DNA of 63,144 nucleotides, the filler included, from Circinaria calcarea (taxonomy: Eukaryota): NCBI GenBank assembly GCA_051942165.1. It is 6 parts of 6 records of this genome, joined end to end, with 100 filler letters (N's around TTAATTAATTAA, not from the genome) between each part and the next. Parts side by side here need not be neighbours in the genome. Positions count along the whole stretch, not along the records: positions 1 to 10,459 come from JAVECS010000801.1; 5 more parts are not named here. One strand, given 5' to 3'. The translations under genes and the position numbers were made by a program. Under the pieces are notes generated by a model that saw only the letters and a program-made list of their open reading frames with translations, had not been told where the DNA came from and made no database searches. Below, one piece after another: positions 2,095-4,842 of this stretch (positions are counted from its first letter, which is position 1; every line of letters starts with the position of its first letter).

Positions 2095-2946
2095 TCACAC
2101 ATTGGATGCTTTGCTCGAAAAGCTGTTTGCTGTTAGCTTCCGAGCATCGCGACTGGCGACTTTGGAAATAGGAATGCTCGGGCCCGCATAGCGATATCTT
2201 CCTTTCGAGTAAATCAGAGGCTCTGTAAGACTCGTCTGATATTTGTTATCAGTGACATCGAGCACTCGGCCTATCATTATCACATGATCTCCGATATCGA
2301 CACTTTTCTCCTTCAGCCATTGGCACCGAATCTGAAACAAGCCGTCCATAACATCTAGCTCAGAGCCCATTGCACTATCGAGTGGCTTTTCGTAAATGGT
2401 ATATTTATCGATTCCTCTCCCTTTGGCAAATAGGTCCGCTATTTTCGCATTCGATATCCCAGTAACAGTAAAATGGCCAGACAACGCAATGGCATTATAC
2501 GTAGAAGACGGAAGCCTCAGATTGAACGAAACCACCGGGACGGGGTCTAGGGTGACAGTGTTGAATGAAGACACAAGAAGGCCGGCGAGCTTGCCGACCC
2601 TATCTCGAGCTGTGACGATCATAACAGGGTGCGGTACCCTTCGCATCGTGTGGCGAACCTTCTCCCGCAGACTTGTTGGCGGTCCTTCTTCAGAGGCATC
2701 GGTGGGAGACTCTGTGAAGTCATTGGCAGCGTCTGTTGTCGCGCTCCGTTCGAGGCCAGTGGCGGTAGCCCTTCGTAATAAGCTTACACTCGACAAAGGT
2801 GAGATGCCAGAAGAGGTTCGCGGTAAGTACCTCAGACAGTGTTTCGTAGAACCCAATCTGGAAGTCAAGCAACATGTATGCTCTGTACGGCCGATCTTTC
2901 CCATCTGGCGCAACCGTGGATTCAAAGGTCGAACGAGTCCCCTCAT
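2095..2946 (-). CDS. Flavin reductase-like FMN-binding protein, probably mitochondrial
   Basis: MRRVPHPVMIVT...GLLVSSFNTVTLDPVPVVSFN...IGDHVIMIGRV...PLIYSKGRY matches the flavin reductase family. Arg-rich N-terminus. First in-frame ATG at 2946. Confidence 0.85.
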   Translation of the reverse strand: MRGLVRPLNPRLRQMGKIGRTEHTCCLTSRLGSTKHCLRYLPRTSSGISPLSSVSLLRRATATGLERSATTDAANDFTESPTDASEEGPPTSLREKVRHTMRRVPHPVMIVTARDRVGKLAGLLVSSFNTVTLDPVPVVSFNLRLPSSTYNAIALSGHFTVTGISNAKIADLFAKGRGIDKYTIYEKPLDSAMGSELDVMDGLFQIRCQWLKEKSVDIGDHVIMIGRVLDVTDNKYQTSLTEPLIYSKGRYRYAGPSIPISKVASRDARKLTANSFSSKASNV

Positions 2947-3198
2947 CTTCCCCACCTTAAACTTGGTAGAAACCTTTAAGCATAGCTCAGCAACCGTAAG
3001 GCACCTTTCAATTGGATAGTCCCCAATTCTCAGGACTCGAAATACATCAACATAGCTAGTATCTGTGCATCAACCCAAGGCACGTCGTGAAAAGAAATAT
3101 CGGCAAGGATTACTCTGGGGGAAGGACCGGGGGTCTCATAGGGCTCGCACTACGACACAACCCCCCCTTCCCGATAGCATCAAAAAGATCACGGAGAC

Positions 3199-4366
3199 AT
3201 GCCACATTATCATCCTCCTCGCCGGCGGCTCCTGCGCAATCTTGCCATCAATTTCAGGTTCCTATTGCCGAGGATACATGTCCGCCCCCTCTCCAATCCC
3301 TCTCCAGTTCGCCCGGCGAAATTCTTCCTCGACCTTAAAAACCGCCTAGGAAAATGCATTTCCTTCGGTCTGCACGGAGAGCAGATCAAAGAGGCAGGCA
3401 AGCTCGCGAAAATACTCGCGGAGGACTGGAGAGGGTTAATGGCAGGCCCTGAAGGGTTCCTACCCGAGAAGGCTATAGAGGAAAAAGTGAGATGGGGGGA
3501 GATGGTGAGTTCTGGAGCTGTTTGTAGGGACAGAAAAAGGAGGCACGAGCTTGGCTGATGGTAACATCTGGGGTTTGGAAAAGTTGTAGGACGTTACGGT
3601 ACGTGTCTAGTTATGCAATATCAGCTCCAAGCTCCTGATTTTATTGAATTCCTCAAGACATATACTCACCGCTGGGTCTATTAAGGGTACGCGATCTATT
3701 CCTTGCTCTTCCTCTCCAAAGCCCAATGACCTGGAACGTCAGATTGACCATACCCAGGCCACGTCAACAACGTAGCCTACCTTCGCTATGCCGAAACATC
3801 TCGCATACACTGGCTGCGCGGTCTCACGGCAGGCGTACCGCTGGAGTACAGAAGCGAGTGGGAAGACCTCTGGTCATCAAGGGGACTCGGGCTTATACTC
3901 AAGAGCGCAAAGCTACACTTCATATTCGTATGTATTCACTTTCTATCTTCTTCGATCGTTGTCATCATGGCCGAGGTAATCAATTGCCCAACTGATTTCT
4001 ACTCTCGACACACAGCCATTGACTTACCCCTCCACCTTCTCCACCCATCACCAACTCATCGAACCCCCCGACCATTCATCAATCATCTACCTTAACGGTC
4101 TCGTCCTTTCCCATAGCCAGCGCCGGCCTGTAGCTCGAATAAGGGAAGAATTACTCATATATGATTACCGCCGAGGCGTTAAAGCGGCGGTAAAACCATA
4201 TATGGCCGAGGTCTTCAGTAGGCGGTGGGAGGAGCAGGAAAAGGAGATGGAGAGATGGGGACGTAGGAGGGTAGAAGTTGGGAGAATGATGCTGAAATTG
4301 GAGAGGGAGACTTGGGCAAAAGAAGGGGCGATGGAAGATATTGGAAGAGCGGGGGCTAGTCGGTAG
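3199..4366 (+). CDS. Hotdog-fold (4HBT-like) thioesterase, probably mitochondrial; 5 exons including 9-nt and 1-nt microexons
   Basis: Exons 3199-3504, 3590-3598, 3686, 3758-3927 and 4016-4366 give VRWGEMDVTGHVNNVAYLRYAETSR...GLILKS...FPLTYP, the thioesterase signature. Confidence 0.85.
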
Positions 4367-4842
4367 AATCATTGAGAAAGAGTCAGGCCGTTCTCGAAGA
4401 TCTAATCTACACCAATTCCCAAATGGAAGATTTGACTTTAACATCGAACTTCACTGTCTACCCTAGATAATCAGCCTTATTAGAGCTTTCAACCAGCATA
4501 GCCCCTACTAATCCCTCCGATACGACTGGGCTCCCCAAATCCTCAATTGTCCAAATCCGGCGTCGAGAATCATACATCCTGGGTTTTATTAGGATTTAAT
4601 GTCGGAGGGCATAGTTCTCTACCCTTCTCACTTCTAACCCATTTTACTTAACCTGACCTAATATTCATCTGGTGCTAAAACCCTCTACTATTCGTCGCTG
4701 TCAATTATTATCCTTCATGAGATGGCTGTGAGGAAAGCAAGCTGTAGAAACCAGAATCTGCTTGATGTGGAATTTCATGATATATTTAAATATTTTCTCG
4801 CTTGAAATCATGCTTCCAACTTCCCCCGTTCTCACTCCCCTA

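Follow-up and report, generated by a model that had tools for sequence, protein, structure and literature searches.

A probable one-nucleotide exon completes the active-site motif of a predicted 4HBT_2 thioesterase gene in Circinaria calcarea

Can a single guanine that lies between two introns be an exon of a fungal gene? This question is raised by positions 3199 to 4366 of the DNA stretch of 63,144 nucleotides (filler included) from Circinaria calcarea that was analysed in this work and that is referred to as the window. A predicted thioesterase gene with five exons on the + strand was identified there by reading the sequence from 3000 to 4800 and by translating it according to coordinates. 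Its exons and introns are shown in Table 1, and exon-intron borders within motifs are marked by a slash throughout. The original prediction had placed G3686 between two complete introns, and both the coordinates of those introns (3599-3685 and 3687-3757) and their canonical GT-AG signals were confirmed.

Table 1. Exons and introns of the predicted thioesterase gene, with positions counted along the whole window.
Feature	Position	Strand	Description
Exon 1	3199..3504	+	102 codons, ATG to ..W-G-E-M; ends ..GAGATG; frame open from ATG 3199
Intron 1	3505..3589	+	85 nt, GTGAGT..TAG, phase 0, directly after W-G-E-M
Exon 2 (9-nt exon)	3590..3598	+	D-V-T; Asp is the conserved motif Asp
Intron A	3599..3685	+	87 nt, GTACGT..AAG; branch-like CTCAC 17 nt before the 3' end
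Exon 3 (one-nucleotide exon)	3686	+	G, first base of the Gly codon of G-H-V-N-N
Intron B	3687..3757	+	71 nt, GTACGC..CAG; branch-like TTGAC 10 nt before the 3' end
Exon 4	3758..3927	+	GC + 56 codons, starts GC CAC GTC (H-V-N-N..); 4HBT_2 core
Intron 4	3928..4015	+	88 nt, GTATGT..CAG, phase 0
Exon 5 (last)	4016..4366	+	116 codons + stop TAG at 4364-4366

The reading frame depends on G3686. The inclusion of this nucleotide gives a 278-codon open frame that contains D-V-T-G-H-V-N-N and ends at the stop codon at 4364-4366. The removal of 3599-3757 as one intron gives a frameshift and a stop after 8 codons, which is the break in the frame that had been anticipated. Thus, G3686 is required for the frame and for the conserved Gly, and it is flanked by two complete introns of workable length that both carry branch-like motifs. 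Under the 8-codon spacing of the family and with the Asp retained, the window has a single GT/GC-AG solution (introns of at least 38 nt). When the spacing constraint is lifted, the window permits 440 combinations of up to three GT/GC-AG introns that stay in frame and free of stops, which helps to account for gene finders wandering at this junction.

The N-terminus of exon 1 (M-x-H-Y-H-x-x-R-R-R-L) is similar to those of the orthologues P0151 and P0061. A 207-aa ORF at 2396-3019 (+) ends about 180 nt upstream of the start codon of the thioesterase gene. An antisense gene or a structured RNA at 3590-3760 was considered and rejected, where the minus strand of 3590-3760 has no ORF of at least 50 aa and a search of 3000-4600 against Rfam gave no match at E up to 1.

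The protein family was identified by comparison with Pfam. Exon 4 alone matches profile positions 11-56 of PF13279 (4HBT_2) with 31.3 bits, which is above the gathering cut-off of 25.5, and the ten profile positions that precede this match correspond to V-R-W-G-E-M-D-V-T-G. The last exon matches profile positions 58-120 weakly. The full-length relatives P0031, P0151, and P0187 match PF13279 from position 1 to positions 120-122 with 69-110 bits, and the region of the W-G-E-M motif opens the profile at position 1 in those proteins. The gene product is therefore predicted from its sequence to be a fungal 4HBT_2 (hotdog) thioesterase. The motif D-x-x-G-H-V-N-N with its Asp, which we take from the 4HBT/YbgC literature to be the catalytic residue, is present only when the one-nucleotide exon is included in the model.

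The spacing of this motif is the same in fungal and bacterial relatives. P0031 (Agyrium rufum), P0151 (Stictis urceolata), and P0061 exhibit an uninterrupted W-G-E-[MQ]-D-[AS]-M-G-H-V-N-N, and the solved bacterial thioesterases 3qy3 and 5byu align without gaps as W-G-D-M-D-x-x-G-H-V-N-N. The restoration of D-V-T-G-H-V-N-N by G3686, as originally claimed, gives exactly the spacing of these bacterial proteins and fungal orthologues. The nearest named proteins of the window product come from lichen-forming fungi and are 40-43% identical to it. Word-indexed protein searches for longer proteins with the last exon or exon 4 of the window as queries gave no match.

The comparison of intron positions in homologues, which the original prediction had proposed, was performed on loci that were identified by scanning metagenome contigs with an alignment of exon-4 homologues. 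The scan gave 80 fungal-type loci. L067-L080, which are partial or weak matches, were left out before any counting, and the analysed set consists of the 66 loci that cover query residues 1-56 together with the window (67 in all). For each of them, a script listed every join from the W codon to the H codon that has exactly 24 exonic nucleotides and GT/GC-AG introns of at least 38 nt.

The one-nucleotide layout is the most frequent solution. Introns at exonic offsets 21 and 22, which enclose one nucleotide, were identified in 46 of the 67 loci, and most of these loci also have the intron at offset 12 (the position of intron 1 in the window), which makes the 9-nt exon. The 9-nt exon recurs at the same place in L009, L010, L031, L035, and L042, for example. 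The conserved layout is ATG/GT..AG/G/GTA..AG/GN, and it is kept in homologues despite their diverged intron sequences. The other loci have a single phase-0 intron at offset 21 (9/67), no intron from the W codon to the H codon (7/67), the offset-12 intron alone (1/67), or introns at offsets 21 and 23 that enclose a two-nucleotide exon GG (1/67, L028). Three contigs are too short for a solution, and AG/G/GT is visible on two of them. A plain phase-1 intron was found in none of the 64 solved loci.

Related loci were also counted as clusters. The clustering of the exon-4-equivalent peptides at 90% identity gave 36 clusters, of which 18 (the window included) exhibit the one-nucleotide exon, 2 are truncated, and 1 exhibits the two-nucleotide exon. 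The remaining clusters have the phase-0 intron (7), no intron (7), or the offset-12 intron alone (1).

The layout of three loci needs a separate description. The top solution of the script for L021 and L022 was a different single base, a C that gives Arg, and the AG/G/GT solution was chosen instead because Gly is the family residue. This second possible single-base exon (CAG/C/GTGTGT) is located about 150 nt after the W codon and 20 nt upstream of AAG/G/GTACTC in both loci. It is probably due to chance and could be an alternative splice route. L028 has a two-nucleotide exon (TAG/GG/GTTTGT) in the region L028:2573-2710, roughly 72 to 203 nt past the W codon, and the following exon opens with A CAT. 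Intron B of L028 lies one base further 3' than in the loci with the one-nucleotide exon and is in phase 2, which is a natural 1-nt intron shift beside a micro-exon.

Indirect peptide traces of the layout are present in the protein library. Among the 14 exon-size ORF fragments that read at least 24 residues upstream of G-H-V-N-N, 9 contain a peptide compatible with AG/G/GTA at 14-32 residues upstream of that motif, where 2.2 of 14 are expected from shuffling. P0004, P0007, and P0025, which are nearer relatives of the window, are among these 9 fragments, so that such traces are found in the subfamily of the window itself.

The splice signals were compared among 26 non-redundant loci (the window included), that is, loci with distinct pairs of intron lengths that had been chosen for having the one-nucleotide exon. 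All six positions of A-G/G/G-T-A are invariant in 26/26 loci. Shuffles expect a usable AGGGT in 1.03 of 26 loci in comparison with the 26 seen, where the 26 had been preselected for this feature. Wherever the flanking exons differ in phase by one, the locus has the signal, and the unsolved loci are truncated contigs only. As controls, AGGGT was found in 1 of 27 distinct offset-12 introns and in 3 of 9 phase-0 introns, none of the latter being usable by position.

Both introns exhibit branch motifs in most of the loci. Of the 26 A introns, 16 contain a strict CTRAY and 22 a relaxed motif, and the corresponding numbers for the 26 B introns are 20 and 25. The strict motif lies 5-45 nt before the acceptor, for the most part 10-14 nt before it. 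The introns A and B of the window have relaxed forms only (CTCAC and TTGAC). Intron B is 48-76 nt long (median 55) and intron A is 52 to 344 nt long among the 26 loci.

The two introns differ in their donors. G at +5 is present in 10 of 26 donors of intron B in comparison with 25 of 26 donors of intron A (Fisher p = 1e-5, which is overstated since the loci are related). AAG acceptors are present in 29 of the 52 introns A and B in comparison with 0 of 21 offset-12 introns (p = 2e-6, overstated for the same reason). In the window, acceptor A is AAG, acceptor B is CAG, and donor B (GTACGC) carries G at +5. At 5' splice sites, pairing with the exon and pairing with the intron trade off against each other. 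The invariant G at -1 and GTA at +1 to +3 of donor B, together with its frequent lack of G at +5, fit such a trade-off.

The origin of introns A and B from a duplication was considered and rejected since the evidence for it is wanting. The local alignment of intron A with intron B in the window is matched by 777 of 1000 shuffles, the similarity of the two introns across the 26 loci is no better than that of shuffles, and the likeness of intron 3' tails is 0.416 within a locus in comparison with 0.395 between loci.

The history of the layout was traced with a quick maximum-likelihood tree that was constructed from 41 rows and 168 columns of the exon-4-equivalent and the next exon. The tree exhibits a 28-row clade with SH-aLRT support of 96, in which 25 rows have the one-nucleotide exon. 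L018, with a single phase-0 intron, and L037 and L040, both intronless, are nested in this clade and are best read as losses. The precise loss of intron B joins the G to the downstream exon and thereby gives the phase-0 form of L018, including its AAG acceptor. The single intron of L018 (L018:294 and upstream) is 139 nt long and reads ATG/GT..ACAAG/GGG CAC.

The window has a very long branch (2.46) and lies outside the main clade of one-nucleotide-exon loci, and this placement is weak. When the window is constrained to group with the 28-row clade, the log-likelihood drops by 1.3 units (p-AU 0.445), so that the grouping is not rejected. The identical introns at offsets 12, 21, and 22 argue for a shared ancestry of the window and the other loci with the one-nucleotide exon.

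The nearest named proteins of the one-nucleotide-exon loci are from Penicillium or Paecilomyces at 78-99% identity, and other such loci are nearest to Aureobasidium, Melanomma, Exophiala, or Myotisia at 60-72%. These nearest proteins suggest that the layout is spread over several ascomycete classes. A more far-reaching and tentative idea, which we consider rather improbable, is that the exon is ancient, predates the split of several ascomycete classes, and has been held in place by a dedicated syntax of splice signals. It is raised because G/GTA is invariant, donor B usually lacks G at +5, and AAG acceptors are over-represented. If it were true, these signals would enforce an obligatory order of removal similar to recursive splicing, in which one excision creates the context for the other, and the mis-pairing of donor A with acceptor B could act as a built-in frameshift switch on expression.

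Transcript-type evidence is available at the homologous locus L042. A third protein search, with the last exon of L043 as query, listed 120 relatives, which are mostly proteins of Aspergillus, Penicillium, and Paecilomyces together with some ORFs on contigs of about 1 kb. One of the relatives, P0187, is a protein of 229 aa that is encoded on six contigs of at most 1911 nt with three near-identical variants (229-230 aa). It aligns with L042 in three blocks at 96-100% identity. The conceptual splicing of L042 through the 9-nt exon and the one-nucleotide exon gives a protein that is identical to P0187 at 226 of 229 residues, the junction included.

The genomic sequence of L042 reads directly as ATG/gtatag..aatag/GACGTCATG/gtaagt..tatag/G/gtagga..aacag/GACAT, and its junction region contains 6-12 stops in all three frames. 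The 90% cluster of P0187 also contains fragments of 53 and 59 aa that end just after W-G-E-M, inside the first intron, and that come from contigs of up to 23 kb. Judging from their structure, the long contigs are most simply read as genomic DNA and the short contigs as spliced transcripts. The comparison of full-length representative proteins with the one-nucleotide-exon loci at 85% identity or more had given exon-size fragments only, and the link to P0187 came with the third search.

The splice signals, the motif spacing, the recurrence of the layout among the 67 loci, and the transcript-like ORFs at one homologous locus all support the original reading. We consider G3686 to be a genuine one-nucleotide exon of a fungal 4HBT_2 thioesterase gene with a probability of roughly 0.88, where splicing in Circinaria calcarea itself is deduced from sequence comparison.

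According to this reading, a stretch of 10 coding nucleotides in the pre-mRNA would be interrupted by three short introns of the U2 type. Both intron A and intron B are complete, with a GT donor, a branch-like motif, and an AG acceptor, and intron definition would thus allow each of them to be recognised separately and to be removed in a splicing reaction of its own. The lone G would be joined to the upstream 9-nt exon and to the downstream GC CAC.. and would thus form the Gly codon of D-x-x-G-H-V-N-N. The introns of filamentous fungi have been reported to be recognised as units by intron definition (PMC5587772), and a one-nucleotide exon would therefore need no exon definition. The pairing of U1 at donor B (positions -3 to +6) would cover the AG of acceptor A, and we infer from this overlap that the removal of the two introns is probably sequential. 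The arrangement appears to be old since it is common to many divergent members of the family. Some relatives would have lost intron B, which leaves a single phase-0 intron, and others would have lost all introns at the site.

Four other explanations have been weighed against the one-nucleotide exon. An unlikely one, which survives best among them, is that the layout was inherited and no longer works in this lineage, where the gene is decaying or its transcript is mostly mis-spliced from donor A to acceptor B. The G would then be skipped, the frame would be shifted, the mRNA would be exposed to decay, and productive mRNA would be rare or regulated. The very long branch of the window in the family tree is in favour of this explanation, as are the weak, non-consensus branch motif of its intron A (CTCAC) and the AAG acceptor of the same intron. 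However, every exon has an open frame, the gene retains the motif residues W-G-E-M-D..G-H-V-N-N-x-x-Y-x-R-Y-x-E, and donor B is good, with G at +5. The low identity of the nearest named proteins also implies that the subfamily of the window is divergent as a whole, which counts against decay of this gene in particular.

A very unlikely explanation is an assembly or sequencing error, where a G was lost from the G run at 3598-3599 or 3757-3758 and the internal AG/G/GT is due to chance. In that case, one intron of about 159 nt would be expected in the true gene, together with a 10-nt exon or an exon that starts with GGC. Since both outer junctions adjoin short G runs, a homopolymer error is formally possible, and among 2000 shuffles of the 159-nt segment of the window with matched composition, 2.3% contain a usable AGGGT (at least 38 nt on either side). 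However, 46 of the 67 loci, which are independent and stem from many assemblies, exhibit the same phase mismatch with an internal AG/G/GTA, and a single phase-1 intron, which the error would imply as the true form, is exhibited by none. Both sub-introns also carry branch-like motifs at the usual distance, and their lengths of 87 and 71 nt fit the size ranges of the family in comparison with 159 nt as a single intron. The window can be explained without an error because the conserved arrangement in the family pairs a phase-0 donor with a phase-1 acceptor.

The use of an acceptor at 3631, which the original prediction had named as a possible refutation, is highly improbable, where the resulting 55-nt exon (3632-3686) would preserve an open frame but would require a 33-nt intron (3599-3631) in a family in which the shortest of 52 introns A and B is 48 nt, and would insert 18 residues between D-V-T and G-H-V-N-N, a motif of fixed spacing in the solved bacterial homologues and uninterrupted in every canonical fungal model seen. 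The nesting of one intron in a splice element of the other as a stwintron, where the first excision would create the second intron, is equally improbable since acceptor A (3683-3685) and donor B (3687-3692) are intact and do not overlap in the genomic sequence and since a stwintron, as defined in PMC5587772, leaves no nucleotide where the G is retained here, even though two introns that lie 1 nt apart are probably not bound by spliceosomes simultaneously. The earlier recall of stwintrons thus holds as an analogy, whereas their defining feature is absent, as neither intron interrupts a splice element of the other.

Public gene models of the family are often faulty at this junction. Among the 120 relatives listed by the third search, 41 have a canonical junction, 65 have a non-canonical junction, and 14 are without the H-[VIL]-N-N pattern. 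The junction is canonical in 7 of the 8 unnamed ORFs. Among the 112 named models listed, 34 are canonical, 64 are aberrant, and 14 are without a recognisable motif. The aberrant models contain odd insertions or deletions within the active-site motif, and the faulty models include those of well-studied Aspergillus and Penicillium species. Models from the same species also disagree at the junction, as in entries of Aspergillus fumigatus and Aspergillus niger.

Some aberrant models are close to loci with the one-nucleotide exon. P0198 (Penicillium decumbens) is 98-99% identical to L035, and P0220 and P0218 (Penicillium canescens) are 94-96% identical to L031, where both loci have the one-nucleotide exon and the models of both species are aberrant. 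P0085 (Xylographa soralifera), which is a relative of the window, has an 18-residue substitute in place of D-x-M. P0256 and P0257 (Parastagonospora nodorum) have G-N-Y-Y-Y-Y-G-(L)-G between D-S-M and H-V-N-N, and this inserted stretch begins with a peptide compatible with G/GTAAC. Either a tiny intervening piece was called wrongly in these models, or the motif truly contains an insertion.

The arrangement can be compared with systems that are already known. Recursive splicing at zero-length exons proceeds by the stepwise removal of an intron at AG/GT ratchet points. The window is similar in that a donor comes almost immediately after an acceptor within an apparent long intron, and it differs in that one nucleotide lies between acceptor and donor and would be kept in the mRNA. 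A recursive splice site with a zero-nucleotide exon was therefore rejected, as one G lies between AG at 3684-3685 and GT at 3687-3688.

In a stwintron, one intron is nested within a donor, branch site, or acceptor, and the surrounding external intron can function only once the internal intron has been excised (PMC5587772). Stwintrons and a 1-nt intron shift have been described in Pezizomycotina (Fekete et al., 2017, PMC5587772). The thioesterase layout resembles them as described there, in that two U2 introns of filamentous ascomycetes lie as close together as possible under intron definition and in that a related form exhibits a 1-nt shift, which is the two-nucleotide exon of L028 in this family. 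It differs from them in that the splice elements are uninterrupted and one nucleotide would be retained in the mRNA.

The closest known case is a one-nucleotide exon in CYP621A P450 genes of Fusarium that was reported for 20 orthologues in one genus and termed there the first fungal one-base exon (Nelson & Syed, 2026, PMC12940212). Both cases are fungal and have the AG/G/GT core, and the G of both completes a Gly codon in a conserved motif. Both also have two short canonical flanking introns, are required for the frame, are conserved among relatives, and are mis-annotated publicly. In contrast to the P450 case in one genus, the thioesterase case concerns a 4HBT_2 protein, was identified in 18 of 36 clusters, and has nearest named proteins from several ascomycete classes. 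Unlike CYP621A as reported, the thioesterase gene also has a 9-nt exon directly upstream, and its family includes derived forms with a two-nucleotide exon, the loss of intron B, or the loss of all introns.

One-nucleotide exons have also been reported from a plant and from a basidiomycete. The single-nucleotide exon of APC11 in Arabidopsis thaliana is an A that is spliced constitutively, as was demonstrated by minigenes (Guo & Liu, 2015, PMC4674806). It resembles the predicted thioesterase exon as a constitutive one-nucleotide exon between GT-AG introns that is required for the frame and wrong in the database. It differs in its host, its base, and its minigene experiments, whereas the case for the fungal thioesterase rests on comparison and on the transcript-like contigs of a homologue. 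The long-read annotation of Coprinopsis cinerea contains 13 exons of 1 nt in 13 genes (PMC12230235). They are similar in that one-nucleotide exons recur in fungal genes, with transcript support there, and they differ in that Coprinopsis cinerea is a basidiomycete and in that the passages on these exons give no gene-level description (PMC12230235). The supplement text of that report contains no thioesterase entry, and its other supplement files may differ.

The full-text literature that was searched for one-nucleotide exons, and for micro-exons together with Aspergillus, contains the APC11, CYP621A, and mitochondrial cases and no thioesterase case. One-base exons as such are thus already known from APC11, CYP621A, and 13 Coprinopsis genes, and the thioesterase exon is an unusually widely conserved addition to them.

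The findings in this work bear on how splice sites are recognised and on how fungal genes are annotated. One-base exons test the limits of splice-site recognition since exon definition is impossible for them and two spliceosome binding sites overlap. Standard gene finders are blind to such exons, and anyone who infers function or structure from the faulty public models of this family would be misled at the catalytic site. The thioesterase family adds a case that has been kept across many divergent fungi. Its natural variants, which have a two-nucleotide exon, have lost one flanking intron, or have lost all introns, constitute a comparative series on the origin, persistence, and disappearance of a one-nucleotide exon.
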